DNA of 36,846 nucleotides, taken from Atractiella rhizophila. Taxonomy: Eukaryota. A program made the translations under genes and the position numbers. Shown piece by piece: positions 4,510 to 36,846 of this stretch; position 1 is the stretch's first letter; every line of letters begins with the position of its first letter. Below the pieces are notes generated by a model. It was not told the DNA's origin. It did not search any database and saw only the letters and a program-made list of their open reading frames with translations. The DNA lies in assembly GCA_021432655.1 (NCBI GenBank), contig MU271306.1, positions 62,001 through 98,846 on the forward strand. Reading direction: 5' to 3'.

Positions 4510-5875
4510 ATGTGGCGGCGACTGCTATAGTTGGATGTCTTCTTCCCTTTGTTCCAGCGTTGTGTTTCCGTCACCAACCCCGCTTTCGCTTCACTCACAA
4601 TGCAACTTGAACTGTCGAAATCAGGAAGTCAGAGTCTTGGACTCTTTATCTCGCTTTCCTTTTGTCTACTATTTCCGCCTTTATTGTAAAGTTTTCTGTG
4701 CTTATCTTTGCTTCCTCCAGAGCCTGCACCAAGCTCCGAATGAAAGCGATCGTAGATTTCAATGGAATGATGCAGTACGAACTCAACTCGCTTATTGTGC
4801 ACTTATCAACTAGCGGGTACGATATGATTATCATTCTTCATTGTCAGTATTACTGGATATACACCATAACTTACCCTCTGTACATCTATTGTGTTGATTA
4901 TGCTAGAGGAGGATGCAGTAGATCCAGATGTCTCAGTAGGCAGTATGGAAGCGGCACTGTACCCAGGTGATTGCAACACTGTCGACGTGGCCTGTCGACG
5001 TGTTCTGCGCTTCAGATGGGTCGCAAGTCACGCTGCTGTGCATTATGCCATATCTGGATTCTGGAGCACCTAGATGGTGCATAAAAGGCGAGGGCACGAT
5101 AGTCTTCGTCAAACACCACGAAGGCAACTTGAAGGAAGATGGCAAAGACCACGTTCCTCTCCCTTCCCCGCGAAATCCATCGACAGATCTTCAATCACCA
5201 TGTGGCGGCGACTGCTATAGTTGGATGTCTTCTTCCCTTTGTTCCAGCGTTGTGTTTCCGTCACCAACCCCGCTTTCGCTTCACTCACAATGCAACTTGA
5301 ACTGTCGAAATCAGGAAGTCAGAGTCTTGGACTCTTTATCTGGCTTTTCTTTTGTCTGCTATTTCCGCCTTTATTGTAAAGTTTTCTGTGCTTATCTTTG
5401 CTTCCTCCAGAGCTGCACCAAGCTCCGAATGAAAGCGATCGTAGATTTCAATGCAATGATGCAGTACCTCGCTTTGTGTACTTATAGACTAGCGGGCATG
5501 ATATGCTTATCATTCTTCATTGTCAGGATTACTGGATACACCATAACTTACCCTCTGCACATCTATTGTCTTGATTATGCTAGAGGAGGATGCAGTAGAT
5601 CCAGATGTCTCAGTTTGCAGTATCGAAGCAGCATTGTAGCAAGGTGATTGCAACCCTGTCGACGTGGCCTGTCGACGTGTTCTGCGCTTCAGATGGGTCG
5701 CAAGTCACGCTGCTGTGCATTATGCCATATCTGGATTCTGGAGCACCGAAATGGTGCATAAAAGGCGAGGGCACGATATCCTTGCCAAGCACCACGAAGG
5801 CAACTTGAAAGAAGATGGCAAAGACCACGTTCCTCTCCCTCCCCCGCGAAATCCATCGACAGATCTTCAATCACC
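4510..5875. repeat. Imperfect tandem duplication, ~690-bp unit (4510-5199 / 5200-5875)
   Basis: Both units start ATGTGGCGGCGACTGCTATAGTTGG and end ...GACAGATCTTCAATCACC. They differ by scattered substitutions and small indels. Confidence 0.95.
5139..5199 (+). pseudogene. Truncated duplicate of the first 20 codons (F-box start) of the 5815 gene
   Basis: MAKTTFLSLPREIHRQIFNH is identical to the N-terminus of 5815..7089 and is cut by the duplication junction at 5199/5200. Confidence 0.85.
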
Positions 5876-7089: not shown

Positions 7090-7272
7090 TCGCCTTTTGG
7101 GGAAGAATGGCAGTCCTCAGGGACGCGTACTCATAAGATGGAAGAAGCAGAGAGCACACTTTGCAGGACACGAAAGGTTACAACAGCTACGAAAGAAAAT
7201 ATGCCTGTGGTCAGCGCATTTCAGCATTCCGAATTGTCAACATGTAAACCTCAAAACATGGCAGTTCAACTC

Positions 7273-8970
7273 CTAATGAAAGACGTGTTCCCACTGAGAT
7301 TCCCCGAGTCAGGTTCCTCAAAATACCAATGGTTTCGGTACATTTACATACAACCTCTCCCCAGACAAGAGTCTGCAAGGTTGGGGGGGATACTTCGAGT
7401 ATGGGTACAAAGTCAATCCCAATTCTGCTGTCATACATCGCTAACACTTGAAGTCTAAAATCAGGTTTGTCAAAGCAATAGTCAATGACAGTAGTAGTAT
7501 TCGGTAGGTTGCCGAACGAAGGCTCAAAATGGTTAAATGCCGCATGACGAAGCTCAAGCTCGCAAAGCGAACGAAATCGTGAGAGGTAGTCGAGTGAGTC
7601 AGATATTTGAAGCGGGTGCTCGTCTGGGACCCCATGAAGCTTCAAGCTCGATAGATGACTGTAAAGACTAGCCGAATGCATCATGACGTAAACGCAGGCG
7701 TTTTGATGTAACCCTGAACATGGGAAACCTAGTACACTAAGGCAAATGGTTACATGAAGCAACACACCTTGCAGAGACAGTGATTTAATGCTTGCTTCAT
7801 GCAGAATCCTGGACAAGCTCGCTGACCCACCGTGGAGCCCAATAGCCAAGTCATAGCTAATATTTTTGACCAAATTGCGCAGTTGAGGACTCCGCTTCAA
7901 AGTCTGCAGAAACAAGACTTCATCGTTCTGGTCCTCCCATTGATACCATCCTTTCAGCCGTGGTGTCTCGTAAAGATGTCGCCTCCCGATATCAAAGAAC
8001 CTCTTGTCAGATCGAATGAAGGAGGTTAGCCCGTGTCTTCCGCCCAAATTATCGGCAGCTTTGGCATCAAAATTAGAGTCGAAGGAAAAGGTAATGGCTT
8101 GAGGAAGAATAAATCTCATCTACGAGCTCCAGAGGTAGTCGTCCAAAAGCTAGCATCTCATAGAGAACCACCGTCTTGATCTAAACGCCATAATGATGAG
8201 TTCTTCCAACCAATAACGAATTCGCCTACCATAACGACTGGTGCACGCAGCTTTGGCTTCCTATTTACCTTCAGATCAATAACCTGTCATTATGTCCCAG
8301 TAACATTAGTCACCTATTCTTCTGCTTCTTTCTTTTTTCTTCCATGGCGACTGAGGTGCTCATAACGGAACGCACTAAAGTCCAGAGAATCCTCACTCTC
8401 TGGGGGTTGCTTAAAAGCTGCATAAAAATTTGTTCTTTCGGCTGGCCCTATCTTGTAGATGCCGTTGCTGTCTGGGTGCCATTCGTAGAAATCATAACCA
8501 TACCGAAAACAAACAACGCCGTAACTTCCTGAATGATCGCCATCAAGCCAGATATAAAGGATCGTGCTAGGTACGGTGTCGGGTAAAGGGAGATCGAAAT
8601 CCTGACAAAGGCTAGAAAACATTGAATATCTTCCCCAAGGATACCAGATCGCAGAATCGTATGGAGCAGAGTATTTGTTGTGATCCAGAGGAAGAAGTCT
8701 TCTTTGGAAGATTGGATAAGAACCAGCTCGCACAAGATCGATGATCCGTTGAATGCATGAATCCGAGAAATGTGGATGAAGGCGGAGTGCAGGACAAATA
8801 TCACCAGGAGATCCTGGTTTTGCTCCACAGGTGGGACAATATTCTGACGGGTTACGATACCCTTCACCCATGTCATCGATTTCTTCATCGGTCAGAGGCT
8901 TGGTGAGATATTCTCTCTATTTCAGCCATTCGGCATCGAGGTCGAGATCTAGCTGCGTATGCTGCTCCAT
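7273..8970 (-). pseudogene. Disabled copy 1 of the CxxC-domain/F-box/LRR family
   Basis: Paralogue of 24835-26519 and 30485-32198. Lesions: TGG>TAG at 8919-8917, a frame offset before the donor near 8313, two 1-nt deletions in the F-box (~8085 and ~8112), and +1 nt near 7303. The ancestral end WEHVFH* is at 7275-7273. The microexon 8230-8260 is retained. Confidence 0.8.
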
Positions 8971-11291: not shown

Positions 11292-14255
11292 TCACCGTGC
11301 TCCTCCTCCACATTGATTGACGCTCGGTGCTGCGGCTCCGTTACCTGACCAAGGATCCAGATAGTGACAATCTACATCCCGCATTTAAGCAAAGACAGAG
11401 GGGTCTAAAGAGTTTGGACGTACTGGGATTCTGAACATACCAACCCGCTTTGTCTTGGTCATTGTCCCATCCGTCAGGTTGGGTAAAGTTGTATCCAGAC
11501 GGAGAAGCTGTTGGAGTAGCATCCGGTTGAGTCACCACCTATCAGAGTACATCAGTGACATTCAGGGATTGAGAGGGATGAGTTTACGGATCCAGTTGGA
11601 GTGTAAGTAGGGAGGAGATTGGCATTTGGATAGCCCGTAATGCTTGTAGGTGGCCAAGTATCATAAGAGGCAGTCTCGCTGGCAATGAGGGTTCCAGCGC
11701 CGGGTCCTCCAGTCTGCCATCCACTGAAGGTTCCAGCCCATGGTTGGTTAGGGGCTGTGGCACCGTGAGCTGGTGGGTAGACCTGGCAAAATCCAACTGC
11801 ATCTCGTGGATTCTGAGGGATGTAGTTGTATTGCAGACCGAGAGAGTAGGACCAGAAGGGGTTGATGGGGGCGTTCGTAACAGTGGAGTTTCCGATCTGC
11901 AGATTTTACAATGAACAAAAAGAAAGCGTGAGAAGAGAGAAGCAAACCTTCCAAGTCCAAAAGAAGTAGTTTCCAGCCATATCCATGAAAGCAGAAGCAA
12001 CGTTCCTCAATCCGGTCTTGATCTCTTCAGAATAAACCTGGTAGTTGTCCCAGCCATCGCATGATCTGTCGCAAAGCGATTAGTCACGGAACCTTTAATA
12101 ATCAAAAGCGATACGAACCCTTGACGAACAGAAGAAGGCGATGACGAGAGCGTAGCTTCGTAGCGAGTGCCCTGTCCTACATTATTGATGTATTTACCGC
12201 AGTCATTGATGGCAAGGGACATCTCTCCCACAAAGCCGAAGCCGAAACGGGTGAAAGTATCATTGTAGAGATTTCCCCAAGTGACCTGTGACGAAATCAT
12301 TGAACCAGAGCCAGCGTTAAGGAGGAGCACATACGCAAGGAAGGTTAGCGTACTGCTCCAATGTGAGGTTCTGGTTAATGATGTCTGGGGTAAACTATTC
12401 GCTTCTCTCAATAGGCATCAACATTGAGAAGAGAAGGCTTACAGCAAAATAAGGGTGATGGTCCAAGAAAACTCTGTCACCACCGTCCAGGAAGCCAAAC
12501 CAATCATCTTGTCCCACGAAGCCGCGATCGATAACATAGGCAGGCCCATTTCCAGCGCCAAACCCCGTAATATCTCTAACCATCTTATATGTCGACAAGT
12601 GAAACTGCTTCATGACCTGGGTGCCAATCATGTCTGCCTTCGGTTCATTGAGAACCGAGAAGATCGGGATAAGTTGCTGTTCCATTTTACCTTCAGCTGA
12701 GCTACGTGAAGATCGCTAGGACGTACGGTGTATTGCGGCTGCGAGACGAATTCGGTGAGCGTTCGGATGTAACTTTGAGTTCTATAGTTTGCCTATCAGC
12801 TGCCTCCCCTTGCCCTTCCAGAGATACGCGCCGTTGGGCATTAGCAATTCCCTAGTCAAAATACCTCAGTATTTGCGAAATCATGATAGACCAATAGCGC
12901 ACCATAACACCCATCAAGAAGTTGACATTCCCCAACTGCAATATGATCTAAGCAAACTTGTGACGAAAACCTAAAACACACACCCTTCCAGAATGATTGT
13001 TTCCGTTTTGTGAGCCTACTCTCGCCATTACTCCTCCGTATTGAATGACAGCAATAGGTCTTACCAGGGACTGCGTGGAGGTCAAGGTTAACGCGAATGC
13101 CGTACTTTCTGCACCACTCAAAACCCTTCAAAACATCTATACAATTTTCATCAGTGGGGACTTGCAAGGGGAGAAGAAAACACAAACATTTCCATCCGAC
13201 GCGTTCGAGGAATGGCTCTCCGTCCCAAGTCTCGATAACCCACCAAGGGATAGGAATCCGAACCCAATTGAGCCCAGCAGCCGCGATGTCAGCGATGTCC
13301 TTCTCGGTCTAAGATAGGGAAACGATGGTGAGTAGCAATGCTCAGTCTGGAAGAAAAAGGCGCACAATAAACGTGTTGTAATGTTCCTCGATTACCTGTG
13401 CTTTCCTCTCTCCCAGAATTGTGGACAGGGTCCATTCGTCCACTGCTGCAGGATTGGAGTTTTCGTAAGGCTCAAAAAGGCCAGGAACAATGAAGGGTTC
13501 GATATTTATCCATCCTGTCCCAAAATGAACCTTTGTTCCTCCTCAAGGAATTTGTGACTAAGCATACCGCCAAGGTTGACACCGTTAATTCTGTACTTAG
13601 CGTAGTCCCTGCGCGACACTTGCCTCAGTATGGCATAGGAAAAGGTAGAGGGAAAAGTACCAAGTCTCATTGAGCGCAGGGACATCAGCTTGAGCCCTGG
13701 CGGTGTTGGAGAAGGGAACTGCGTCCCAAGTTCCGCCGTAGTTATTGACGTAAACAAAACTCGATCCATCGTCCATGATCATTTCAGAGTTATCCATTCC
13801 TGTTCCTCTCCAAGCTCCCGATTTTACAGAAGGATTCGTGGCTGCAAAAGTGCTTGAGGTACCATTCCCGCTGCTCCCCCCGTGCCCGTTGTTTCCTCCG
13901 CTTCCTTCGTTGCTAGAGCCTGAGTTATTCTTCGACGAAGACTTGTTGTTGTTCGATACGACTGTGCGCCTTCATCAGCGATATGTCAGATACAAGGAAA
14001 AAGGAGTCGCGAACCAATGCCCACGGGAATAGCGACTGCAGCAGCCACGACAAGGAGGACTCCAGCGATAATCCAGAGTTTCTTGTTGCTCTTTCGCGCC
14101 ACGTTCTGACCAGTGACTAGTCCCGTCTCTTCCTTGCCTTGTGAGTTGTATAACTTCATACCCGTCGTGCTTCCCCCTCCTGGACCCCCTCCGTACGTGG
14201 AGTCGCCTGGAGTAGACGGGTTGTAGTGTAGCGGCTGAGATTCGTGCGCTGACAT
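11292..14255 (-). CDS. Glycoside hydrolase family 5 exo-beta-1,3-glucanase, type II membrane-anchored (GH5_9/ExgD-like), multi-exon
   Basis: N-terminal TM helix (KLWIIAGVLLVVAAAVAIPVG) and an S/G-rich linker. Motifs: INGVNLGG, EPFIVPGLFE, VDEWTLS, AGLNWVRIPIPWW, KYGIRVNLDLHAVPG, catalytic NEP (12649-12641), FLDHHPYF, nucleophile VGEMSLAINDCG, FFWTWK. Stop at 11294-11292 after CGGGAR. Confidence 0.92.
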
Positions 14256-15194
14256 TTGGTGTAACTGAGATGTTGGAGGTATTAAAGAGTGAAAAACCTA
14301 TGAAGTAGATGAAAAATTCGAAAAGGAGCACCAGAAGACGATGGTCGTCCTTCTTGGAATCAACAGTCGGGATTTAGGGTTCCACACGCACGCCTTGGCA
14401 AGGCTGTACGTTGATGTTCGTTCCTTCATTCAGAGTTCATTATTGGGCCAGGGCAAACCTCGAAAGCTAGAAAGCAATCTATGTTACCCGCGCAAACATC
14501 GCGACAGTGTTGCAAGCACTCTTGAATACGTTGGCGTTCCCAAACAAAATCCGCGCCCGCAAAGCTTTCTTCCTGTGGGCTAGTGGGGTACTTGGTTGGA
14601 GAATTGGCCATTATTTGAGCCATAGTGGAAAGAAAGATGGTTGCCCCAGAGGTGAGTTCAGCTCTCTGGATCGACTGTTCATTTGCAACAACCATTTCAT
14701 CTCAAGCGCAGTTTGCATTGTTGTCCCATCTATCAGGATTCACTACAAATTGCCTCTTGTGGCTTTGGCAAATGCTTAAAAGAGTCAACCGTCTCTTCTT
14801 GTATTCATCAATGATACCAGCTAAAATTGCTTTCCACCTTTATTGAGACTTATGACATTATTTGTGAACAGAGGGAATCAGCAACTTCGTAGAGACCTTC
14901 AATCGAAAGTTATGTCTTTCAGATCAAGCAATCTCCTAGCGATATGAAGCAGGCCAAGTTTTGTATTTGTGGCCTGCTGGAGAACATCACTTTGCAGCTG
15001 AGTTCAATGAGTCGGGACCCTATGAACTGAACATAGTACATCTAGAGCTAGGGAAGCTATTGTCAAGATTTGCAATGCCACTTCGTTACTCACAGTCGTT
15101 CCTTTTCGAACGAACAAGAGGTCCTGACGAGCCGGGATTCGCACCTGTTGCAAATGGCCATAAATGAGGAATATTGATATATTGCTTAATGTAG

Positions 15195-16495
15195 GCACCA
15201 CGTACCTCGAAATTATCATGGAATTCGATACCTGCAGAGATTCTAGACCAGATGCTGGAGGAATTTATACGCATGTTACCAACCGACAAACTAGCTCCCG
15301 CGACAGACTCCTCATTCGGGAGAGGAGCCGTCTTAAACAACCTTCTACAAACGCACTTCGTTTCGTTGTCCCTCGTGTGTGTACATGTTTCCTACGTTAT
15401 ATTGTCAGCTTTGAAGCAACATATAGATCCACATCTTGGACAAGCCGCGTTCGAAAAATAGCCTTCCACTCAATTATAATTGATCTGCGTGCGAACGGGG
15501 TGCAAAAACTTACATATCCCTCAATATCCGTGTTCAACTCCGCACTTCAGAGATATTCCTGGTTGAGAAGCTGTATAGCTCAAGTCCACCTCATTTTCGA
15601 ATCGTCAGCCTCTCCGTCAGTCTTTGCACTAGTCCAACCGTGCTTGTCACGTTTGCCTGGGCTCCTAGAAGTCTGTCTGGAGTGCATCTGGAGTGGCAGA
15701 GGGCACACATTGAGATCGAACGATTGCTTATCAACCTTGGACGGTTTGAAACTCCAGAGGATTCGACTCCATGGTGGTCAAACCTATTTGATGGAAGCTC
15801 TTACTACCCTCCTCATATCGCAGCCAACCATCAATCTGGTTGAACTGAACTACGTTACCCTATCGTCGGCATCAAATCCCCCAACTGCTGGCGAACAAGT
15901 CGACTTGTCAGCTCCTTTGGACGGTCTCCGCACCTTAGAGCTCTATGGAATAGCTGACACAGCGGTGTCACTCCTGCTTTCGTGGGCAAACAACGTCCAG
16001 ACACTACGCTTAAGAACGAGAGACTCTCTTCAACTACCTAACAGTTTGGTTTTCCCTCACATGAAATCCTTGAATATTTTTTTCCTCAAAGAGGGTCGTT
16101 CGGGTTCGAGGGCGCATGAGAAGCCAGCAAATACCCTAGCTTCTCGTTGTCCCAACTTGAAATCACTTGTCGTCGGTGGAGATGGTTGGGATGGTGGTCT
16201 CTTCCAAAAATTACCTCAAGGACTACAAACTATTCAATTGAAAGTGTCGAGAAGGCAAAGAGACGTGATAACGCCGTCCATCATCCGAGAAACCTTTATT
16301 ACCAGTGATTTCCAGAAGAACAAGTTTCTGCCTATGCTAGATTGTTTGGCGATAACCGCGATGATAACCAGCTTTCCACAGGCAGTCCATGGGACGAAAC
16401 ACGTTCACGTATGGGTGCTTCAACAGGAAGGGCTCCAAAGGGATTTACTGGAATGCGGTAGGAAGTGGAGGAAATGTATAGTATCTGTTCTTTAG
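15195..16495 (+). CDS. F-box-like / LRR protein, copy A (true start upstream uncertain)
   Basis: The F-box SWNSIPAEILDQMLEEF lies in a different frame from the long ORF and joins it via an intron (~15377-15426) to give LSLVSTSWTSRVRK. The intron position matches that of the 9412 gene. LRR units: GLRTLEL, NVQTLRL, CPNLKSLVV. Confidence 0.75.
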
Positions 16496-16546
16496 CACAT
16501 TCGTAAATGGAGCTCGAGAGTCATTTTGAGGGCCAAACTGCCAGCA

Positions 16547-16900
16547 TTCCTTCGTTGCTAGAGCCTGAGTTATTCTTCGACGAAGACTTGTTGTTGTTCG
16601 ATACGACTGTGCGCCTTCATCAGCGATATGTCTGATACAAGGAAAAAGGAGTCGCGAACCAATGCCCACGGGAATAGCGACTGCAGCAGCCACGACAAGG
16701 AGGACTCCAGCGATAATCCAGAGTTTCTTGTTGCTCTTCCGCGCCACGTTCTGACCAGTGACTAGTCCCGTCTCTTCCTTGCCTTGTGAGTTGTATAACT
16801 TCATACCCGTCATGCTTCCTCCTCCTGGACCCCCTCCGTACGTGGAGTCGCCTGGAGTAGACGGGTTGTAGTGTAGCGGCTGGGATTCGTGCGCTGACAT
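16547..16900 (-). pseudogene. Truncated 5' duplicate of the GH5 gene (cytosolic N-terminus + TM anchor only)
   Basis: MSAHESQPLHY...AVAIPVG nearly identical to 13986-14255. It is cut at the duplication junction before the catalytic domain. Confidence 0.85.
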
Positions 16901-17845
16901 TTGGTGTAACTGAGATGTTGGGGGTATTAAAGAGTGAAAATCCTATGAAGTAGATGAAAAAAATCGGAAAGGAGCACCAGAAGACGATGGTCGTCCTTCT
17001 TGGAATCAACAGTTGGGATTTAGGGTTCCACACTACGCCTTGGCAAGGCTGTACGTTGATGTTCGTTCCTTCGTTAGTTCATTATGGACTAGGGCAAACC
17101 TATAGACAATCTGGAAAGCAATCTATGTTACCCGCGCAAACATTGCGACAGTGTTGCAAGCAGAGTTTTACTCATCTTGGACTCTTGAATACGTTAGCGT
17201 TCCTAAATAAAATCCGCGCCTGTAAAGCTTTCTTCCTGTGGGCTAGTGCTATACTTGGTTGGAGAATTGGCCATTATTTGAGCCATAGTGGAAAAGAGAG
17301 ATGGTTGCCCCAGAGGTGAGTTCAGCTCTCTGGATCGACTGTTCATTTGCAACACAATTTCATCTCAAGCGCAGCTTGTTGAACGTTTTTTGCATTGTTC
17401 TCCCATCTATCAGGATTCATTACAAATCGTCTCTTGTGGCAAATCCTTAAAAGAGTCAACCGTCTCTTCTTTTATTCATCAATGATACCAGCTAAAATTG
17501 CTTTCCACCTTCATTGAGACTTATGACATTATTTGTGAACAGAGGGAATCAGCAACTTCGTAGAGACCTTCAATCGAAAGTTATGTCTTTTAGATCCAGC
17601 AATCTCCTAGAGATATGAAGCTGGTCAAGTTTTGTATTTGTGGCCTGCTGGAGAACATCACTTTGCAGCTGAGGTCAATGATTCGGGACCCTATGAACTG
17701 AACTTAGTAGCTATTGTCAAGATTTGCAATGCCACTTCGTTACTCACAGTCGTCCCTTTTCGAACGAACCAGAGGTCCTGACGAGCCGGGATTCGCACCT
17801 GCAAATGGCCATAAATGATGAATATTGATATATTGCTTAATGTAG

Positions 17846-19146
17846 GCACCACTTACCGCGAAATTATCATGGAATTCGATACCTGCAGAGATTCTAGACC
17901 AGATACTGGAGGAATTTATACGCATGTTACCAACCGACAAACTAGCTCCCGCGACAGACTCCTCATTCGGGAGAGGAGCCGTCTTAAACAACCTTCTACA
18001 AACGCACTTCGTTTCGTTGTCCCTCGTGTGTGTACATGTTTCCTACGTTATATTGTCAGCTTTGAAGCAACATATAGATCCACATCTTGGACAAGCCGCG
18101 TTCGAAAAATAGCCTTCCACTCAATTATAATTGATCTGCGTGCGAACGGGGTGCAAAAACTTACATATCCCTCAATATCCGTGTTCAACTCCGCACTTCA
18201 GAGATATTCCTGGTTGAGAAGCTGTATAGCTCAAGTCCACCTCATTTTCGAATCGTCAGCCTCTCCGTCAGTCTTTGCACTAGTCCAACCGTGCTTGTCA
18301 CGTTTGCCTGGGCTCCTAGAAGTCTGTCTGGAGTGCATCTGGAGTGGCAGAGGGCACACATTGAGATCGAACGATTGCTTATCAACCTTGGACGGTTTGA
18401 AACTCCAGAGGATTCGACTCCATGGTGGTCAAACCTATTTGATGGAAGCTCTTACTACCCTCCTCATATCGCAGCCAACCATCAATCTGGTTGAACTGAA
18501 CTACGTTACCCTATCTTCGGCATCAAATCCCTCAACTGCTGGCGAACGAGTCGACTTGTCGGCTCCTTTGGACGGTCTCCGCACCTTAGAGCTCTATGGA
18601 ATAGCTGACACAGCGGTGTCACTCCTGCTTTCGTGGGCAAACAACGTCCAGACACTGCGCTTAAGAACGAGAGACTCTCTTCAACTACCTAACAGTTTGG
18701 TTTTCCCTCACATGAAATCCTTGAATATTTTTTTCCTCAAAGAGGGTCGTTCGGGTTCGAGGGCGCATGAGAAGCCAGCAAATACCCTAGCTTCTCGTTG
18801 TCCCAACTTGAAATCACTTGTCGTCGGTGGAGATGGTTGGGATGGTGGTCTCTTCCAAAAATTACCTCAAGGACTACAAACTATTCAATTGAAAGTGTCG
18901 AGAAGGCAAAGAGACGTGATAACGCCGTCCATCATCCGAGAAACCTTTATTACCAGTGATTTCCAGAAGAACAAGTTTCTGCCTATGCTAGATTGTTTGG
19001 CGATAACCGCGATGATAACCAGCTTTCCACAGGCAGTCCATGGGACGAAACACGTTCACGTATGGGTGCTTCAACAGGAAGGGCTCCAAAGGGATTTACT
19101 GGAATGCGGTAGGAAGTGGAGGAAATGTATAGTATCTGTTCTTTAG
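17846..19146 (+). CDS. F-box-like / LRR protein, copy B
   Basis: Almost identical to copy A, with few differences (e.g. PPTAGEQV vs PSTAGERV). Confidence 0.75.
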
Positions 19147-19489
19147 CACATTCGTAAATGGAGCTCGAGAGTCATTTTGAGGGCCAAACTGCCAGCTGTC
19201 TACATTCTGAGCAAACGAAGTTCATTTTCACAAGTTCATTTCCAAGACAAAGCGGACACAATACAACAAGCATCTCGAAGAGATACAATATTCACAAGTG
19301 TAGCAGCACAATAACATTTATCCCAAATATAAGCATACTGATCAAATTTTCTTCTCCTCTTGAAGCTTTTGAAGCGCCGCATTGGTCCTCAAGACGACCA
19401 TATTCTGTCAAACCATCGTCAGCTGATATATTTCCAACTATGTGAAGGGAAGCGGACCTGCAAGCTGACTTTTCCTTTCTGTTTCCTCT

Positions 19490-20002
19490 NNNNNNNNNNN
19501 NNNNNNNNNNNNNNNNNNNNNNNNNNNNNNNNNNNNNNNNNNNNNNNNNNNNNNNNNNNNNNNNNNNNNNNNNNNNNNNNNNNNNNNNNNNNNNNNNNNN
19601 NNNNNNNNNNNNNNNNNNNNNNNNNNNNNNNNNNNNNNNNNNNNNNNNNNNNNNNNNNNNNNNNNNNNNNNNNNNNNNNNNNNNNNNNNNNNNNNNNNNN
19701 NNNNNNNNNNNNNNNNNNNNNNNNNNNNNNNNNNNNNNNNNNNNNNNNNNNNNNNNNNNNNNNNNNNNNNNNNNNNNNNNNNNNNNNNNNNNNNNNNNNN
19801 NNNNNNNNNNNNNNNNNNNNNNNNNNNNNNNNNNNNNNNNNNNNNNNNNNNNNNNNNNNNNNNNNNNNNNNNNNNNNNNNNNNNNNNNNNNNNNNNNNNN
19901 NNNNNNNNNNNNNNNNNNNNNNNNNNNNNNNNNNNNNNNNNNNNNNNNNNNNNNNNNNNNNNNNNNNNNNNNNNNNNNNNNNNNNNNNNNNNNNNNNNNN
20001 NN
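19490..20002. other. Assembly gap (N run)
   Basis: Continuous run of Ns. Confidence 1.
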
Positions 20003-22350: not shown

Positions 22351-23768
22351 CTTTGGCAGAGTATACAGGACCCCATCTTAACCGAATACAGGAATTGACG
22401 GAGCCGTACCGGGGAGCAGCTCGTGAGAAACCTATCTTTCTTCCCTAACGAACTCCCTCCCGATGCTGAGACAGAGCTCTTCCGCGAGTCTCGCTTGAAA
22501 AGAGGCATTTTGATAAGGGTCGAGATTACGAAACGGGGTTGTTCAGGCTTGATAACTTGTCCACCAAATGTGTATTTGATGTGTCTGAAATGTCTGAAAT
22601 GCCGTATTGCCAAGTCCAAGCTTACGCAAGGGGACAGCGCAGGAAGTTATAGAGCAAGTGGCAGACGCAGAAGAGTCCCCGGATAGTGGCGAGTGAGTGA
22701 AATGAGGGGTAAAGCTGGGGTAAAATCACGAATCCAGAGTCAAGACAGGAAAAAGAGCGGAAGCAGCGGGCGGGTATGTCGGCGACGGCTTTCGTCCGCA
22801 TTGCCGTTTCCTGTGGACCCGTTTGCTGAGTTCGGATATTTTCAGTCACTTTCGACCCGTAGTTACTACACTGTCAGGATGATTGAGGTCTGGTAAAGAG
22901 GCTGTAAGGGTGGTCTGAAGCAATGGGTTTGAGCATCTTTGCCTGATACATGGGTGGTTGTCGTTTCACGAGCTAGGATCGGAGTAAATTGATAGCTCTG
23001 AGTAGCATAATATGAAATCTAACGCTCTTAGCGTCGCTCTGTCACTCATTCTGTGTACATTGAAGGACACACGCTGTATTTTGTGCTGCATACGCTGTCG
23101 AATGCTTTGTACCATGCCTCAGCTTCATTCGTCCTGCTCTCTGGAGTTCCACCATAAGTCAATCACTTGCATTCCCCCTTCAGATGAAATTCCATTAAAG
23201 GAACATGAACGAGGAGCAAACCCGTGATGCCAGCAAATATCAACAGCTCTGGAGAAAATGAACGCTACCCAGCATTGCTCGTCGCATCTGCGTATAGTTT
23301 CCTTCCAAAATGTAATCCCATGACTATGTATTCGGGATAGGGATAAAATTTTCCAACTTGATTATGACGGACTTCACTCTTCCTTCCCCTTGCAAGCATT
23401 AGGAGATCTATCTATAAACGTATTCAATTGAGATTATCATTCTCCTTGAAACCAATTTCATCCATATCCAAACTAATCTAGTCCTCCAGGAGGATCATGC
23501 AAAGACATCTGGACTGGACATCAACGTCAGGAAGGTCATGTAACTCAGCATGAATTCTTGGGAAGATTGCTCAAATGAGGTCTGTTCGGGACTTGAGCAT
23601 CTGATTTCTTGAATTTTCTGCCTTTTCAGAAATACGTCTGACTCTGATCTTATTGCGCGTAACTGAACACTTTCTGGACTGTGCTGGGTCTTTTGGAGTC
23701 TCATCCTTCAAGAAAGCGTGATGGATGCGGTTTCAATATTCTGACGGTCCAGGCAAGCATCCGTGCAA

Positions 23769-24078
23769 TTATTTCTTTTTATCGCAAACTTTTGTAAGCG
23801 CGCACACACTACCATGAATTTGTAAAAATGTGTCGATATGGTCGTCATATTCTTCTGGCATTTCGTTCATCAACCCTGTTATCGCGCTCCCAGCCCACCA
23901 TGGGGCACCTGGTGCCGCGTTGAAGCGAGATCCGACCCAGCGTACAGCTTCGTAGTGTCCTACCTGAAACCTCCAACGAATGCGGCAGAAATGCGGATCC
24001 TCTGGGATAACCATGTTGCCGACGCTTGGACTTGGTAATCCTGCTGGCGTAGAGCGGATGCAAATCAATCCGCGGCAT
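23769..24078 (-). pseudogene. Chimeric remnant fusing paralogues of the 28402 and 27042 genes
   Basis: MPRIDLHPLYASRITKSKR (compare MPWIDLHPLYTNKITKSKR at 28402) is joined out of frame to GNMVIPEDPHFCRIRWRFQVGHYEAVRWVGSR (compare GNMVIPHDPHFNRICWRLQAGHHEAIRWVGSR at ~27300). Confidence 0.7.
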
Positions 24079-24311: not shown

Positions 24312-24834
24312 CTTGGAAGCCTTGTAAGCCTGTTAACAGTTGGATAGAGTTCTTTGAGAGCTGTTCCTCTTGTCTTCAAGTTCCTTGTAACTTTGTTGCG
24401 CCCATTCATCTGGTTGATTCCAGCCTTTGTATGCGATCATTGTCTGCTTTTCAGCAAATATCGGTTTACTGCGTTCTCCTGGTTTGGTACAGGTCGTTAC
24501 TGTCAAATAAATTTGCAACCTAACCGATGGACACATTGATGCAGAGTGGTGAACTGGTGACAAATTGTCCGTCCGGCTATCTCTATTACTCCTATTGCCA
24601 ATAAACCCCAGCGAGCAAAATATCTAAATCTCCTGCACATGACGATTTAGAGGCTACTGTTCAGCATGTTTCGGGACTCTCATGCGAGCTCTTGAGGGAC
24701 GAATCGGTGGCTGTTGATGAGAGAACCGTAGAAGCAGCTTTCAACCTGCGACTGCAAGGTTGCTGTCCAAACGGTGCTTTCAATGATAATCAATAGCTCT
24801 TAAAAGTTCAAAATCGTGGGAAAGGGAATTCGTC

Positions 24835-26519
24835 CTAATGAAAGAGGTGTTCCCAAGCGGTTTCTCGAGTCAGCATCCTCAGAATGGAGATAGTTTCTGC
24901 ACTTCCACCCTCGACGCTTTCCCAGACGACAGTTCGTAAGGTAGGAAGTGATACCTCAAATATCGGGACAAAGTCAGGTCCGACTCCACAATCATATATC
25001 GTCAGTACTTGAAGTCTGAAATGCGGTTTGTGAAGGTAATGATATGAACCATTGGAGAGTTCCTTGCAAAATTTGCGTCCAAATGTTGCATGACGAAGCT
25101 CGAGCTCCTGAAGAGAATTAAATTCCGCAAGATAGCGTAGTGTGATGGAAAGTATAAGCCGATCAGCGTTTGGCGCACCGTGAAGCCTCAAGCTTAACAC
25201 ACGACTACAGAAACTGAAAGAATGCATCATCATATACAAGAGGGGTTGGTACGTCAAACCTGAATATTGTAGATATTAGCCTGCTCAGCGCAGAAGTGAA
25301 AAGACACACCCTGCAGATAAATCGACTCGATGCTCTCACTTTCGCGCAATATCCCGCACAAGCTTTCTAGTCCGCCGTGGAGTCCGCTCTCCAAATCATA
25401 TGTAATATTTCTCACCAAACCTCGAAGATGACGGTTTTGCTTGATGGTTCGCAGAAATAAGATTTCGTCAGTCTGGTCTTCCCACTGATACCAACCTTTA
25501 AGCCAAGGAGATTGATAGAGATGCCGTCTCCCAATGTCGACGAATCTTTTAGCGGATCGAAGGAAGGAAGCGAGCCCGTGTCGTCTGCCCAAATTATCGG
25601 CGGCTTTTGCATCGAAATCGGCGTCGAAGGGAAAAGGCAATGGCTTGAGGAAGAATAAAATCTCGTCCACTAGCTCGAGAGGCAGTCGACCAAACGCTGG
25701 CATCTCCTCAAAAACCACAGTTTTGACCTATGGACTTTGAACCTACAATCAAACGAATATAGGAAATTGTGTACCATGACTACGGGAACACGGAGGTTCT
25801 GTCCCCTAAGAACCGTCCAGTTCAATTATCCCTTTCGGCAGCCTTAATGAATCTACAGACCTTTTCTTCCTCCTTTTGGCCAGTCTTTTTCTTTCCTTGG
25901 CATCCAAGGTCTCGTCAAGCTCAGGTGGTAGGGAAAAAGCCGAATAAAATCTTGTTCGACTTGGAGGTCCTAGTTTGATGATCTCGTTCAATTTTGGGTC
26001 CCATTCGTAGAAATTTCCATCATACAGAAAGGAAACAATACCATACTCTGCATACCCGTGAGCTATAGCCCTGTCATCGTACCATGCATACGGAATCGTG
26101 CGCGGTACTGTGTCAGGTAGGGGGAGATTGAAGGTCTGACGGAGGCGAGAAAAAATCGAATATCTTCCCCAAGGATGCCAAATAGCTGGGCCGCTTGGTG
26201 TTGGAGATTCGTTACAATTGAGAGGCAGAAGTCTCCTCTGAAAGATGGGATATGATCCAGATCGTAAAATCCTTGAGATCCATCCGATCCAAGGAATACT
26301 TCCTGCCTCAGGGAAGGGTGGTTCAGCGCGAAGCGCAGGGCAGAGATCGCCCGGAGTTCCTGGTTTTGCTCCACAGTTTGGACAATACTCGAAAGGGTCT
26401 AGATTCCCTTCATTTTCTTCCTCCATAGGTTCGTTTTCTTCATCCGTCAGAGGTTTAGTAAGACATTCTCTCCATTTCATCCATTCAGCATCGAGGTCGA
26501 TTCGTGAAAGTTGTTCCAT
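24835..26519 (-). CDS. Copy 2 of the CxxC-domain/F-box/LRR family (4 exons including a 31-nt microexon)
   Basis: Starts MEQLSRIDLDAEW...YCPNCGAKPG. After ...KRRKKR, the microexon 25805-25775 (GQNLRVPVVM) splices in frame to VKTVVFEEMPAFGRLPLELVDEILFFL. LRR-like tail ends WEHLFH*. Confidence 0.75.
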
Positions 26520-27041: not shown

Positions 27042-27458
27042 TTACAATGTTTTCTTTTCATTGCAATCCTTTGTGAGCGCATATACACTACCTTGAATGC
27101 CCATAACTGTCCGCAAATGATGATCATATCCCTGCGGAGCTTCATTTATAAGCAATGAGATCACGCTGCCAGCCCACCATGGCGCGCGTGCTGCAGCATC
27201 TGTCCGCGACCCGACCCAACGTATAGCTTCATGATGTCCAGCCTGTAACCTCCAACAAATGCGATTGAAATGGGGATCATGCGGAATGACCATGTTCCCA
27301 AAGAAACGACATTTTGCAGCCCAGTTGTCATCAAGTAGGTCGTGCAATTCATCTACCTCTGCCGCGGTATAGAATTCTGGAAATGCCGCTGCTAGAACTA
27401 TTTTGCGAACTTTTCTTCTACCGAGGATAGGCGGTCCAACTCCTAACTCTATGATCAA
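27042..27458 (-). CDS. Hypothetical protein or exon (start uncertain)
   Basis: 138-aa ORF whose C-terminal half is conserved at the amino-acid level with the paralogue at 23769-24020. Confidence 0.5.
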   Translation of the reverse strand: MIIELGVGPPILGRRKVRKIVLAAAFPEFYTAAEVDELHDLLDDNWAAKCRFFGNMVIPHDPHFNRICWRLQAGHHEAIRWVGSRTDAAARAPWWAGSVISLLINEAPQGYDHHLRTVMGIQGSVYALTKDCNEKKTL

Positions 27459-27966
27459 AAGTGTGAGAAAGGTATTTGGGGAAACCGACTCTGGCTTAAA
27501 TCTGATTGTCCCATATTCCTCTTGGGTGACCTAAATGGACCGCGTAAAGGTCATGTTGGGGTTACTATCATAAGACTCACAAGAATTTTTCGTTTGACAT
27601 GAGCGCTGACCCTCTCGATAGCGGTATGAATGCCTAATATCCCCATCGGTGCACTTTTTAAACGACCGTTGCCTCCCTCCTGTGCGTCCTCAGGTTGGAT
27701 TTATCCACTGCAGAAGCATTTGGAGGATGCATGGGTGACTCATCTTTGATACCATGTTAAATGAAGCTATCTATCCAAGCCACGCCTGCTTCATTCCTTA
27801 CGGTCCCTTTTTGTGGAGCTCGGGACAAACTCTTTTTATTTTGATTTACATTTCAAAAGGATCAAACTACCAAACCAAGAACCGTGCGAGATGGACTGTC
27901 ACTATCCCCAACGGCCTAACCCTGGGAAAGCTCGAATGTTGTTTTTAACAATTGTTCTTCCTGTGA

Positions 27967-30484: not shown

Positions 30485-32198
30485 ATGGACCAGCTTTCAC
30501 AGGTGGACCTCGATGCGGAATGGATCAAATGGAGAGAATATCTCACTAAACCTTTGACAGAAGAAGAACTCGAAGCTATGAACGAAGAGAATGAAGAGAA
30601 CCCTGATCCCTCTGAGTATTGTCCCATATGTGGAGCAAAACCTGGAACGCCTGGTGATCTTTGTTCTGCTCTTCTACAGGAACCACCTTTGCCTTACATG
30701 AACATGAATGATCTGTCATGGTTCGGTCAGTTCGCCGATATTCTACGGGCGGGGCCTTATCCTATCTTCCAAAGAAGATTTCTACCGCTCGATTGTAACG
30801 AGTCTCCTCAGCCAGAATATCCGGCACTTTGGCACCCTTGGGGCAGATATTCAATATTTTCACGACTCCGTCAGACGTTTGATCTCCCCCTCCCTGACGC
30901 CGCACCAAGCACCATTCCTTATACGTGGTACGATGGCAAGACTATAGCTCCTTATAAAGGGACTTACGCCACCTATGGCGTTGTTTGTTTTCTATACGGC
31001 GGCAGTTTCTACGAGTGGGACCCAAAGTCGAATGCAATTAAGGAACTAGGGCATCCCAGCAGAACGAATATTTATTCAGCCTTTGAGCAACCGCCACAGC
31101 GTGATGAGACTTCCCATTCCAATCGTGGTGAAAGCAAAAAGCAAACCCGGAAAAAGAAGAAGAAATGGTGAGTTGTACTTTTTAGACATACCAAGGCATA
31201 TAATTGAGTCGTAGGGAGCCAAACTTTCGTGCTCCAGTCGTCATGGTACATAATTTCATTTTCTCTTTGGGAGAACTCAGTGTTGCGGCGCTAGGTCAAG
31301 ACCATGGTTCTCAACGACATGCCAGCCTTTGGTCGACTGCCTCTCGAGTTGGTGGACGAGATTTTATTCTTCCTTAAACCGTTGCATTTTCCCTTCGACT
31401 CGGATTTCGACGCGAAAGCTGCCGAAAATCTGGGCAGACGACACGGTCTCAGTTCCTTCATTCGATCTGCCAAGAGGTTCGTCGATATCGGGAGACGACA
31501 TCTTTATCAGTCTCCTTGGTTGAAAGGATGGTATCAGTGGGAAGACCTGACAGACGAGCTCTTGTTTCTGCGAACTATCAAGCAAAATCCACATTTGCGA
31601 AGTTTGGTGAAAAGTTTCACCTACAATTTGGAGATAGGGCTCCACGGCGGTCTAGAAAGTCTGTCTGGGATTTTAGACGAAAGTCATCATATAGAGTCGC
31701 TTAGTCTGCAAGGTATGTCTTCTCTTTTACCTCTTGTTCAGAATAAAGCCATAGTTCAAATATTCAGGTTTGAACTCAATCTCTAGCTTTTACATCATGT
31801 ATTCCTTCAAGGATTTCCGTCGTATCTCTTGTCTGAAGCTTCACGGTATCCCCAAGGCTAGGCGATTTAGCATTTCCATCATACTCCGCTACCTGGCAAG
31901 ATTCACTCATCTTCGCGAGCTCGAGCTCCGTCGAGTGCAATTTTCACCTACGTTCCGCAAGGAAGCGTCCAACCTGATGGATTACTGGTTTCAAAAACCG
32001 GAATTCAAACTTCAAACACTTGCGATCTATGACAGCGGAGTTGGGCCTGACTTTGTCCCTATACTCGAAACCTCGCTGTTTACCTTGAAAACTCTGGTGT
32101 GGGAAGATGTCGAGTGCTCTTGTGACGAAACCGTCCATATTTTGAAGAATCTTACTCGGAATTCTCGCTGGGAACAATTCTTTGGAGTTTATAGGTGA
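30485..32198 (+). CDS. Copy 3 of the CxxC-domain/F-box/LRR family, ~520 aa
   Basis: Exons 30485-31167, 31215-31245, 31295-31712 and 31768-32198 total 1563 nt. All introns are GT..AG and the joins are in frame. Confidence 0.8.
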
Positions 32199-33146
32199 CA
32201 CATTGAGAAATTGGGTGCAAACTCCAATTAGCCTTTCCTACAGTCACTTTTCATACCCGTGCAAAGTAACTTTCATTGTTCCTCATAGCTCCTCAAGATG
32301 CCTCATTGAGGTCCGCCATTAAATCTTCACCAGTTCACCCCTCACACAGACTCCATCAATCCTTCCCGTGTGACTCGGTCAATGGCGCCAGGTCCTCCCG
32401 CCACTCATCCTCTACTCATCCTCCACTTCATCCAGGCCAAAGAGAACCTCTCCCAGTCGCATCTTCCAAATTTCGTCGGCAATGCATCCAGCTTATTCAA
32501 CCTCAACCCCCCGGATAATTTCGTAAGAATTGATCCAACTGATGTGGGATTGTTACCCAGTTGTGAGCGTTGAGGAGTTCAGATAGCGTCCACTTGGCGA
32601 CGTATGAGAGTGTTAATGAGGAATCATAGAGATATGCGCAGTGTCCTTTAGGCTGCTCTCTGCCGAGCTCTACCCAAAGGGAGTAATAAAGTTGGAGTGC
32701 GAACGGGCACCTCACCAAGGCGATAAGCTAACAAGGAGATATTCGAGGATGTCTGGTAGCCAAACTTGGCAGGGCAACAAGCAATAAAAGTACTAAGTTG
32801 GTGTCGAAGGATACCTCAAAGGATGTACTGATCTCCCTTTGTTCAACATCGCAGCGACCCTTTTGTAGGCGACAAGCACTTCAGCAAGACAGTAAGGCTA
32901 ACAAGAGCACTCGAAGGCTACCCGAGATTCGTCTTTGTGCAGAGGAAATCCTCAAAAGGTCGCCCATAAAAAGGTATGGAAGCTTAACTCATCTCATCAC
33001 ACATCATGTCCAGAAACATTCGAGCTCAGTTCGACCACAGTGCCACGCGTTGGGAGGCCTGTCAATGGACGCTGACTGAGGTAACAAGTGTGGGCTCAGC
33101 CAAGCTCCAATTGACAGTGTAGTAGATTGCTCGCTTCTTTGAAGAC

Positions 33147-34972
33147 ATGGCGCATGAAATCAGCGCTGGCAGATACCAACTACAAAGGCAAAGTGACAGA
33201 GACAAATTCATCTCGGTGTATAACACATTCCTAAGGCCTTATCAGGACAACAGCGGATCGCGTTGGGTTCGGCCTCCAACTAAAGTCAATTATTACGAGA
33301 CATCATACGACATCCATAATGTTTACATGGCTCTAGGTCTGGTCTTTGCTTTTAATGTTGTAAAGCTAACCCTGATACAGTGTGGATGCTTGCTTCGATC
33401 GTAGATCCGCCACCACTGCCGGAGAACGAACCCAACCTTTGGATTTTGCAGATGGCTGTAGTTCTGTGCTTCTGGATCTTCAGAGTCAATAACACTCCTA
33501 AAGGAAAACCCGTCGCTGTTGGCTTCATAGGATGGACTGATGGGCTGCACTCCTGGTGGAGTGGCACATCGGCCCCTCCTCGACTTGTTTTTGGTCACTC
33601 CGCGCCAGCTGCTTCCAAGAAGGGGGTGAAGATGGCAGCCGAAGAATATTTCCAGGTTCGTATGGATCTAGGATCGTCGATCACCCAACCGGTAAAAAGC
33701 TGGGAAGGCAGAGGAAGACCGCCTAAAGGGGACGACCCTCGGGATCAATATCGCAAGGGTCGCACACCCTCACCTTTTCCGAAGAAACGGCGAGACATCT
33801 TCTCAACACCTCACCCAGATCAACTTCGGACTGATTCCAAGAATCGCGGCGAACGTAAACATGAATTGGGGATCCTATTAAACCTCCACCTGCCCCAAGA
33901 TTGGGACAACGAGAAGAAATGGTTAGACCACTGGAGGAGCTTGGCAAGAAATCAGGAAGAGAGGTCTAGGATTGAACAGCTGATGAAGTCAACTAACTCG
34001 TTCAAAGCGCGTCCGAAAATGCATTGTGCCGAATCCTGCTCTTACTCCATGTGCGTTCCCTTTAGCGGGTCATGAGACATGGTTAATTGCTTAGCTAGCT
34101 TGTTCGAAGAGCACCACAAATACTCTTATGGGCTCGCAATGAACGTAGAAGATGTAGTCCACACATTCTATGATTCGAAAGCAGGAGCGCTTCTTGATAG
34201 GGGTTGTTGGGATAGTGTTACGGCTCTCAAGCGCCTTATCATTGACCCTTGCGCTGCTTGCTGGCAGCAAAAACGTTGGGTGGAACGGCAACAGGTTGAA
34301 CGAATCGATCGGGACTTCTCTGTCACCGATGCGGCATATTTCTCACCCCAAATCACTGCTAATTTCAGGTTGGATGCTCATTACGAGGACCCACAGTGGG
34401 ACGAAGATGTTTTGCAAAGTCATCAGGGACACCAAAGCTTGCACGATAATTCTTCGAGACCGTCGAACTTCGGAGCATCCACCTCATCGAGAACACTTCC
34501 ATCGTCGTCTCAGCTTTCTGGACGATATCCTTCACCTGCGACTGGGCGATCTGGATACGACAGCGGTCTGTATGCACCACGGCCCGATCCTTACTTGCCT
34601 GATCCCACCTCGAGTCAATCGTCATCGACGAGATTCTTTAGTGCCCCAGGAACGAGGCAACCAGGTCACTACCAACCTCGATACAACGTTCCCACGACAG
34701 GATCAGCCCCCGGTCCCAATTACTCTAGCGGCAAGGGAGAAGCCAGGTATGGCAGCGGGCGGCGCTCGATGTATTCTGAGGCACCTCCTTCTCCTTCTCG
34801 GGCGAACGGGTACGGTGGCCCTTCTCATGGGACCGCATATTCGGACGATTATGACTTGGGAGCCACCTCTCACTCACAAGACAGTCGTTACTATCAAGGG
34901 AATCCTTATAAGCCAGGACAATCTTCTCGCTATCACATGGATTACTATGATCCATATCCTAGGAAGTATTAG
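33147..34972 (+). CDS. Putative zinc-dependent deaminase-fold protein with low-complexity S/G/Y/P tail (3 exons)
   Basis: Introns 33337-33380 (branch GCTAAC; an in-frame alternative acceptor exists at 33404) and 34051-34098 join three ORFs in frame. HCAE at 34022-34033, then YSYGLAM, then PCAAC at 34247-34261. Confidence 0.6.
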
Positions 34973-36846
34973 GCATGCCCGCACGAAAGCGTCTCCTTCC
35001 TCGGTTCTGACTATGCATCATGCCTTCTTCTAAATAAAAATTAAAAAAGTCAAAAAAAAAATTCTTGTACAGCTGCTTTGAGTATACAATGATATATGAC
35101 ACATGTTTTCATGCCAATGTTGATCTCGCAGAACCAGATTTCAGATTTCAGATCTCAGTAAGGCCTTAGCAGAACCTTTCACATGTCATCATTTGTAAAA
35201 AAACAACGTGCAAACTCAACGGTAGGGAGCAGAGGATCATTCACGGTATAACCAGATTGTAATCCTCCTTACATATTTTCATCTGAACTTGGATACTTAT
35301 TATATTATCGTTTGCCTAATGAAAGGCTCTTCTAGTGACACAAAAGCAACCTCGTCCTTCCAAAGCAAAAACCATATATAACAAGTTTCAGCTCCAAAAG
35401 CAAATGAAACAGGCTGTTGTGACATGTATACAACAGAAAGCACTCCGAACTCACCTGTCATAGCTCCCTCCGCTCCCATCCATCCCACTTGATACACCGT
35501 GAACTCCCAACCTTTCACTCTAATCCTCCTCACTTCCCCGTTGCGATTGCACCTGGGCAGTCAGTGCAATTGGTAGAGGAATCTGCTTGTGTTTCGGGAA
35601 GTACAAGTGTGTCAACGGCCTTCGTCCCTCAGGCCCCCCACCCACTTGCAAGGGGCATGGCCCCTTGAACCCTACTGTGACCGTTGTCATTGTCAGGGTT
35701 CGAGTCCAGTACAAAACACATTTTTCAACCCTTTCAGAATAAAATTTCCTTGCAGGTTCAGAAAGGGGCAAGCATATGGGATACGATGGTATAATACATT
35801 TCATTCTATTGTGTATGGTGAGGGAGATGTGAGGGCTCAAAAGTGCGTCTTATGACTCATGCTAAGACCTGATGAATCTTAGAGTATAGGATCAAGATAG
35901 GGTCCCGATTGCGTTATTGGGAACTCGTCACGGAACTGCAGCTGGACGGTGTCAGGAACAGGAACTGAAACTGAACTATGAAGCACCTTGAAGGCAACAA
36001 GTGGACTTTGATTGAACTTTACACTATAGTTCATGAATTATCGTCATGGCCACAAATAGGGTTGCAAATACTTGGCAAGAGTCAGCTGACCCACCGCTAC
36101 TGCTTCTGCATTTCGGCGACTTGGTCGTTGGCAAGTCCATTCGTCGCCTGTCAAAGACAAATGCTCATTGCCTTCTCGCACCATCACCAATGTCGCATTT
36201 ACGAAAATTGCCCTCAATTGCGAGGCCCCCTCCCCCTCACTTTAAGAGGATCTACTCCTCTGCATGCCCCACTGGGTGAATCCCTATGAACGTAGGTCTA
36301 GGCGAGGCGCCGGTCTGTTCCTCAACGGACAGATCGGCAACCAGTTTGTTGGTGAGTCACTCACCCCATTTTCGCAAAACAGTTGCTTATTGCACCAAAA
36401 CAACACCGGTCAAATTTCAAAAAATCCCTCAATTGTGAGGTGCACAATGACTCCCCCTCATCTTACACTCTGTTTTGGTTTTGATGTTTATTGTATCCTA
36501 TTTTTTGCTTTTACCTTTTTGTTTACCTGTCCTTGTTCGCTCGACAACACATTATCCCACAAAGAAGACAGACTGGCGATGAGCACACAAACCGCCGACC
36601 CGTTATACTATGGTGACGGTCACCTAGTCCCAACAACAATGTCTTAGCATGACTCATTGATGATAGTTGATGAATTTTGTTCCAAATTTTCCAGGCTTTT
36701 TTTTTTTCTAGTTCGAGTTGGAGAAGCTGTTCAAGTCACATAAGAAAGAAAGTTGTGATGCACAATTTTGCAAGAATATATTAGTCCAATCAAATTGTGA
36801 AGGAAGAATATGTTTGTAATAACTATGTCTCTCTAAACATCATGTC

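Follow-up and report, generated by a model that had tools for sequence, protein, structure and literature searches.

The root endophyte Atractiella rhizophila (PMC6450171) carries a gene in which two short motifs, CAE and PCxxC, recall the zinc site of the deaminase superfamily, raising the question of whether this fungus encodes a toxin-derived deaminase that acts on nucleic acids. The window analyzed here is the whole stretch of DNA of 36,846 nucleotides (C127:62001-98846), and the candidate gene lies inside it on the + strand, appearing in the ORF list as two same-frame ORFs (33356-34075 and 34076-34972) parted by a single TGA. The gene structure, the organization of the protein, the putative zinc site, the search results and the genomic context were each used to evaluate this possibility. 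Features are collected in Table 1, and residue numbers follow the 577-aa model of the protein.

Gene structure and annotation

An intron at 34051-34098 had been proposed to lie between the two motifs, and this assignment is borne out by its GT-AG signals, the preservation of the frame and the same splice in the public protein. There are 25 GT-AG pairs that span the stop, two of which have a GTGCGT donor and keep the frame, with this intron being the nearer of the two. Splicing does link CAE and PCxxC as originally described, but the intron length is divisible by three and the two motifs therefore share one frame even unspliced, split by one stop. Contrary to the initial description, the gene is annotated: NCBI lists it with the same splice and no function given, and the three-exon model of 577 residues is identical letter for letter to 'hypothetical protein BT69DRAFT_1296734 [Atractiella rhizophila]'.

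The public start is probably too far downstream. A paralog elsewhere in the genome (see below) has a database protein that starts 32–33 residues earlier than the 577-aa model and includes a matching first exon, with 20 of the 32 upstream residues identical, while the position of ATG 33147 is a Val in the paralog. Because the paralog has both this extension and the Val, ATG 33006 is the probable start codon, 141 nt upstream of the public start, for a predicted protein of 609 aa. Judged from the sequence, the public model and the paralog, this is a real four-exon fungal gene.

Table 1. Features of the candidate gene and its repeated neighbors (window positions unless a contig or locus is named)
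Feature	Position	Strand	Details
Probable true first exon	33006..33080	+	25 codons, ATG 33006; absent from the initial and public models; 609-aa open frame when joined
Intron 0	33081..33125	+	45 nt, GTAACA...TAG; 44 nt in paralog
Exon 2	33126..33336	+	public model begins inside, at ATG 33147
Intron 1	33337..33380	+	44 nt, GT...CAG, CTAAC branch site; 50 nt in paralog; spliced in both public proteins
Exon 3	33381..34050	+	hydrophobic N-half of putative domain, basic disordered linker, helical segment, CAE motif
Two hydrophobic segments, residues 88-99 and 107-117	33452..33541	+	putative strands 1 and 2 of deaminase sheet, from the fold order helix-strand-strand-insert-CxE
Basic Pro-rich disordered linker, residues 166-225	33686..33865	+	17 K+R; FoldIndex -0.56; 78% identical in paralog; within putative strand-2/helix-2 insert
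C279-A-E281	34025..34033	+	putative first zinc ligand and catalytic Glu; spliced model; kept in paralog
Intron 2	34051..34098	+	48 nt, in frame, GTGCGT...CTAG, TTAAT branch-like site, TGA at 34073-34075; spliced in public protein
Exon 4	34099..34972	+	putative strand 3, insert, PCxxC, domain end, tail, stop
C338-x-x-C341	34250..34261	+	putative second and third zinc ligands; PCxxC at 337-341; kept in paralog
Disordered tail, residues 393-577, 185 aa	34415..34969	+	S/P/G/Y/R-rich, scored unfolded; 20 Tyr, 15 Arg
Two-gene unit	7271-8945 (-/-), 24833-26500, 30485-32183; L190:2882-8897 (C174), C691, C664, C880	both orientations	65-96% identity

Paralog, haplotypes and selection

A search of the A. 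rhizophila genome recovered a copy on C691 that is identical over the whole gene, along with a diverged one on C174 and a partial one on C1934. Comparison of the flanks points to two loci with two haplotypes apiece (C127 with C664/C691 and C174 with C880/C1934). The C174 copy of the paralog is broken by a one-base frameshift relative to C1934, which is either a null allele or an assembly error, while the C1934 copy is open but ends at the contig end. All three introns occur in the paralog at matching positions (44, 50 and 48 nt). Between the window and the paralog, one-base gaps within the 48-nt intron offset each other and the donor, branch-like site and acceptor are kept, such that the stretch behaves as non-coding DNA. 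Stop-codon editing or read-through at the intron TGA was rejected based on the kept splice signals and a paralog in which the stop is missing at that place.

The paralog pair is under purifying selection, with a dN/dS between the loci of 0.36 over residues 50–392 (340 codons; 73% identity) and 0.25 over the tail (184 codons; 84% identity). Residues 56–125 are 80% identical in the paralog (dN/dS 0.25), and the adjoining block 126–165 (40 codons) has a dN/dS of 1.29, with too few sites to call positive selection.

Two further observations were made around the 3' end of the gene. The first 288 nt of the 3' flank (window 34973-35260) are 94% identical to the C174 paralog (L003), exceeding the identity of synonymous sites (65–75%) and of two introns (74–81%), as a result of either gene conversion or a constrained 3' UTR. 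The +1 frame over the tail is open for 291 codons in the window (34158-35033) and for 266 codons in the paralog (L190:207-1007, - strand). Dual coding by this overlapping ORF was rejected, as 204 of 5,000 synonymous shuffles reach its length (median, 224 versus 271 codons) and the open frame mostly reflects the tail composition.

Organization and localization of the predicted protein

Residues 50–165 appear folded and hydrophobic and are followed by the basic linker, while residues 226–392 contain helices, the CAE, a hydrophobic segment and the PCxxC. The protein ends in the disordered tail of about 190 aa anticipated by the initial annotation, found here to span 185 aa and to be unfolded by score. 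The tail consists of 19% Ser, 12% Pro, 11% Gly, 11% Tyr and 8% Arg (S/G/P/Y/R amount to 62–64% of each 50-residue block), with RG dipeptides absent. It may form condensates or associate with RNA, as first suggested, and is under purifying selection.

The highest 19-residue hydropathy is 1.57 in the window protein and 1.40 in the paralog protein, below the typical transmembrane level, and there is no hydrophobic or signal-like stretch in the full N-terminus of the paralog. Due to the lack of both transmembrane-level hydropathy and a signal-like segment, the protein is probably intracellular. The earlier suggestion of a toxin divides in two: a CxE type akin to the toxin-derived YwqJ clade is the part best supported, but a secreted or membrane toxin is unlikely given the hydropathy maxima and the non-hydrophobic N-terminus of the paralog.

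The putative zinc site

In the spliced protein, the first Cys of the PCxxC lies 57 residues after E281, close to the spacing of about 55 noted initially. Conservation of the four residues had been named as a check, and C279, E281, C338 and C341 are all kept in the paralog, a comparison that spans one paralog of 73% identity in which all four would survive by chance about 1 time in 4. Over residues 50–392, five of the six Cys but only four of the 12 His are kept, the Cys including C283 and C93. The His of the HCAE described originally (H278) is not conserved, with an Asn in the paralog, and the first ligand would therefore be the Cys and the motif CxE rather than HxE. An [HC]xE followed by PCxxC 20–70 residues on occurs in 14 of 20,000 shuffles of residues 50–392, and the looser motif pair without the Pro in 211 of 20,000, both patterns having been chosen post hoc.

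For comparison, 16 bacterial YwqJ-family domains were fetched with PF14431 and aligned (one sub-threshold row included; two sub-threshold Pseudomonadota rows and one row without a locus omitted). The Glu-to-Cys spacing is 39–60 residues (median, 55.5) in all 16 domains, a range that includes the 57 of the window gene, and the first ligand is Cys in 14 of the 16. The YwqJ clade is further marked by the Gly of Gx[CH]xE, and the window gene departs from this feature with a Met at position -2, as does the paralog; the feature is not strict, as the Gly is present in nine of the 16 bacterial members. The paralog retains H120 and H136, neither of which the alignments paired with the His that is invariant among the bacterial domains.

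Sequence and profile searches

Searches of Pfam, NCBIfam and PADLOC at E-values up to 10 returned nothing for the window protein, and those of PHROG (two weak rows of unknown function) and of PDB sequences (one irrelevant row) yielded nothing meaningful. The YwqJ profile (PF14431) returned no candidates in the genome, with the window protein under the Pfam cut-off (25.9 bits). When aligned to the same profile using hhalign, the candidate lines up each motif with its counterpart, CAE with CAE and PCxxC with PCxxC, across 69 columns at a probability of 9% (P 0.0037). As controls, a neighboring unrelated CxxC protein reached P 0.0073 against the YwqJ profile over 10 columns, and the candidate compared with a SUKH profile gave P 0.46. 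An HMM of the 16 YwqJ domains, applied with no filter, gave 4.2, 3.2 and 6.2 bits, scores equalled by 5, 16 and 2 of 1,500 shuffles. The protein is not classed as a YwqJ member because the Gly of Gx[CH]xE is missing and there is no significant profile match.

Relatives beyond the paralog were sought in several collections. A phmmer search of 1.84 billion representatives had one match, a fragment of the paralog, and protein word searches (1,071, 4,457 and 251 candidates) recovered solely the window protein or the paralog protein. None of the pattern matches were confirmed in metagenomes (0/71 and 0/112) or viral sequences (0/57), plasmids gave no match and phages gave four weak irrelevant rows. 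The CAE...GLA DNA pattern had 66 matches versus 44 for its control and did not reveal further paralogs. Weak matches on C241 and C470 of the same genome were rejected as paralogs and attributed to chance, lying in a region that, from reading the translations, we take to be DAHP-synthase-like/WD40.

The genome does contain two OTT_1508-like deaminases above the Pfam cut-off, both on the - strand (C10:25402-25590 and C57:88039-88224; L237 and L238). The PF14441 profile that finds these two loci does not find the window gene, and assignment of the gene as an OTT_1508/OLD enzyme was rejected based on this lack of a match and on a CxE rather than an HxE motif.

Fold predictions and language-model neighbors

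Two AlphaFold2 models are mostly helical, with mean pLDDT values of 38 and 31 that are too low to inform on the fold or the zinc site, and a Foldseek search with the latter model had no matches at E 0.001, the model being too poor for this result to carry meaning. ESM Atlas features offer leads. For residues 225–395, YwqJ is the sole Pfam-named family among the 30 clusters listed (rank 11, 0.77), and the same is true among the 30 listed for residues 50–392 (rank 18, 0.77; family on 11% of members), both scores being below 0.9 and thus to be read as leads. The nearest feature clusters to residues 50–392 are unnamed clusters from the Chordata (0.91 and 0.89) and the Ascomycota (0.90), at a level that, per the tool's own statement, 4–10 of 100 shuffled proteins reach (0.9). 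The unnamed clusters, two from the Ascomycota (259 aa, 102 members; 225 aa, 52 members) and two from the Chordata (364 aa, 114 members; 388 aa, 127 members), have no Pfam family and no function.

The Atlas model of residues 50–392 matches two mostly-Ascomycota clusters with TM-scores by row of 0.58 (192 residues) and 0.61 (184 residues), and by query of 0.46 and 0.42. Based on these matches to unnamed clusters, residues 50–392 have a predicted fold that is shared among fungi. The likeness by row is 0.28 for the C-terminal half alone versus 0.58 with residues 50–224 added, and because of this rise the protein probably has a single domain starting near residue 50, far ahead of the CAE.

Genomic neighborhood

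Both deaminase-like loci adjoin a repeated two-gene unit composed of a protein of about 230 aa (with a CPxCG zinc-ribbon-like knuckle and a basic C-terminal end) and an F-box/LRR-like gene. The 230-aa family has at least 14 matches on five contigs, all around the two loci, and no family match. A role for these proteins as SUKH-type immunity proteins found no support, with profile probabilities of 4% for SMI1_KNR4 and 0.04% for SUKH-4 and no SUKH family in the Pfam scan, through which alone SUKH-3 and Imm6 were covered. The simplest reading of the region is a locally duplicating, fast-changing gene cluster.

Elsewhere in the window, a tandem 2.65-kb duplication (13902-16545 and 16547-19196; 95% identity) carries a 443-codon F-box/LRR-like ORF and adjoins an assembly gap at about 19490-20002, and a 690-nt tandem duplication lies at 4510-5875. 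An orphan 162-codon ORF (27042-27530, - strand) with weak non-significant Pfam and PHROG rows has a local duplicate at 23742-24020. The segment at 3224-4477 (- strand) presumably represents exons of a velvet-domain-like regulator.

Proposed function and alternative explanations

Of the possible readings of the gene, that of a YwqJ-like zinc deaminase of the CxE type has the best support, although this support is partial: the four residues kept in the paralog, the YwqJ-like spacing and YwqJ as the sole named Atlas neighbor among those listed argue for it, whereas the lack of any family or PDB match and the low hhalign probability argue against it. A deaminase fold as such is fairly likely, and the fuller proposal, in which a toxin-derived nucleic-acid deaminase of the CxE type serves defence in the cytosol or nucleus, is modestly probable from the sequence. 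In this enzyme, the zinc would be bound by C279, C338 and C341, with E281 as the proton shuttle in the hydrolytic deamination of a base, following the superfamily chemistry in which zinc activates water and a Glu shuttles the proton (PMC3239186). The core would spread over residues of about 50–392 and be interrupted twice, first by a long insert that separates strand 2 from the CxE helix and contains the basic disordered linker, and then by a second insert ahead of the PCxxC. Cytidine in single-stranded nucleic acid is tentatively the likeliest substrate, by analogy, since the Bacillus YwqJ deaminates C in ssDNA. The basic linker and the Tyr/Arg/Gly/Ser tail may bind or localize the putative enzyme to nucleic acid, and its likeliest role, likewise by analogy, would be intracellular defence against viruses, selfish DNA or non-self nuclei.

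Coincidence is the strongest competitor. The gene could encode a lineage-specific protein with a different fold, its Cys residues serving a structural zinc site or disulfides and its likeness to deaminase motifs being fortuitous, consistent with the absence of any significant sequence or profile link to a deaminase, the similar score of the control CxxC protein on the YwqJ profile and the retention of C283 and C93 in the paralog. The mostly helical AlphaFold2 models point the same way, but models with a pLDDT below 40 are uninformative on the fold. Against coincidence, the motif pair is rare in shuffles (14/20,000), both the spacing and the CAE spelling agree with YwqJ domains and the Atlas features give YwqJ alone among the named families listed, making this explanation rather unlikely.

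A deaminase fold with some other job is unlikely. Such a protein might be a free nucleoside/nucleotide or blasticidin-like antibiotic deaminase, an RNA editor with few targets like the fungal OLD, or a zinc-bound inactive scaffold that binds nucleic acids, and the presence of two loci in the genome with no overall positive selection is compatible with it. All four catalytic positions are, however, intact in both the window gene and the paralog, and there is no CDA sequence match in Pfam or the PDB. Small metabolic deaminases are, to our knowledge, not typically equipped with long inserts or with a conserved basic/aromatic tail of 185 aa. Precedents for other activities do exist: CxE is the usual signature of the CDD/CDA and blasticidin S deaminases (PMC3239186), mRNA editing by the OLD enzymes of Neurospora is confined to few sites (PMC12754623) and, according to a recent preprint, earlier screens of other YwqJ-family enzymes saw no DNA activity (10.64898/2026.09.29.755374).

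It is highly improbable that the 48-nt stretch is no intron and that the window copy is a pseudogene or a stop-codon-edited read-through with its motifs in a decaying gene. In favor of this reading are a length divisible by three, the lack of a stop within the stretch in the paralog and the frameshift in the C174 copy relative to C1934; against it are the donor, branch-like site and acceptor kept in both copies with offsetting gaps, the splice in the public model, the dN/dS of 0.25–0.36 on both sides of the intron and the identical C691 copy.

If the candidate deaminase is indeed a fungal YwqJ relative, its possible action as an intracellular mutator or antiviral enzyme could be tested directly, and base-editing chemistry would gain a new scaffold. 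Should the connection to the unnamed clusters of the Ascomycota and Chordata prove real, the gene would point to an unannotated eukaryotic deaminase family. A further extension is distinctly unlikely, namely that the protein is an outlying member of an unnamed toxin-derived CxE deaminase family spanning fungi and chordates, an APOBEC-like mutator of single-stranded nucleic acid that is independent of AID/APOBEC, is checked or localized by its conserved disordered tail and is possibly regulated by the flanking duplicated pairs of F-box and zinc-ribbon genes. According to a 2018 survey, fungi are without AID/APOBEC enzymes (PMC5889660).

Comparison with known systems

The closest described group is the YwqJ-like clade (PF14431), in which the fold order is helix 1, strand 1, strand 2, a long insert, the CxE helix, strand 3, an insert and the CxxC (PMC3239186, Table 1). 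A domain start near residue 50 fits this order, with the strands assigned from the sequence. The window protein shares with the clade a CxE spelled CAE, the PCxxC, an insert between strand 3 (at its putative position) and the CxxC of 57 versus 39–60 residues, a basidiomycete host, few paralogs and a probable long insert before the CxE helix. It differs in having no Gly two positions before the Cys, a score below the Pfam threshold, a much longer insert with a basic disordered linker and the 185-aa disordered tail. Basidiomycete members of the clade, for example in Laccaria bicolor, the variation between CxE and HxE and both inserts were described by Iyer et al. in 2011, who proposed a defence role for the mushroom YwqJ-like and OTT_1508-like enzymes (PMC3239186). 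The host of the window gene is an Atractiellomycete rather than a mushroom, and the comparison with mushroom members is by published description. The accessible literature on YwqJ deaminases yielded no experimental test of the basidiomycete enzymes predicted in 2011, and nothing further was found in the literature on a described fish or fungal CAE family.

The Bacillus subtilis YwqJ toxin offers a model for the deamination of cytidine in ssDNA; as reported in a preprint, it deaminates C in ssDNA and not in the dsDNA or RNA tested, and an E539A variant is dead (10.64898/2026.09.29.755374). The window protein would resemble it in the putative zinc triad with a catalytic Glu and in extra domain helices. 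The toxin uses a His as the first ligand, carries LXG domains for delivery and is accompanied by an immunity gene as well as an endonuclease V neighbor, whereas the window gene contains introns and lacks both a delivery domain and a recognizable immunity neighbor.

Among fungal enzymes, OLD-1 and OLD-2 of the Neurospora OLD-ZAO module are toxin-derived deaminases for which a different form of defence has been shown (PMC12754623). The OTT_1508-like/OLD enzymes (PF14441) are alike in a proposed defence role and in providing an example of a toxin-derived deaminase acting inside a fungus; unlike the window protein, OLD has an HxE and matches PF14441. No zinc-finger transcription factor was seen adjoining the window gene. 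The unnamed Atlas clusters are the nearest by language-model features (0.89–0.91), with the two fungal clusters also near by predicted structure. As a category the putative enzyme is known, eukaryotic members having been predicted in 2011. It is new in how far it has diverged, in its long insert and conserved tail, and in a possible connection to the unnamed clusters of the Ascomycota and Chordata.
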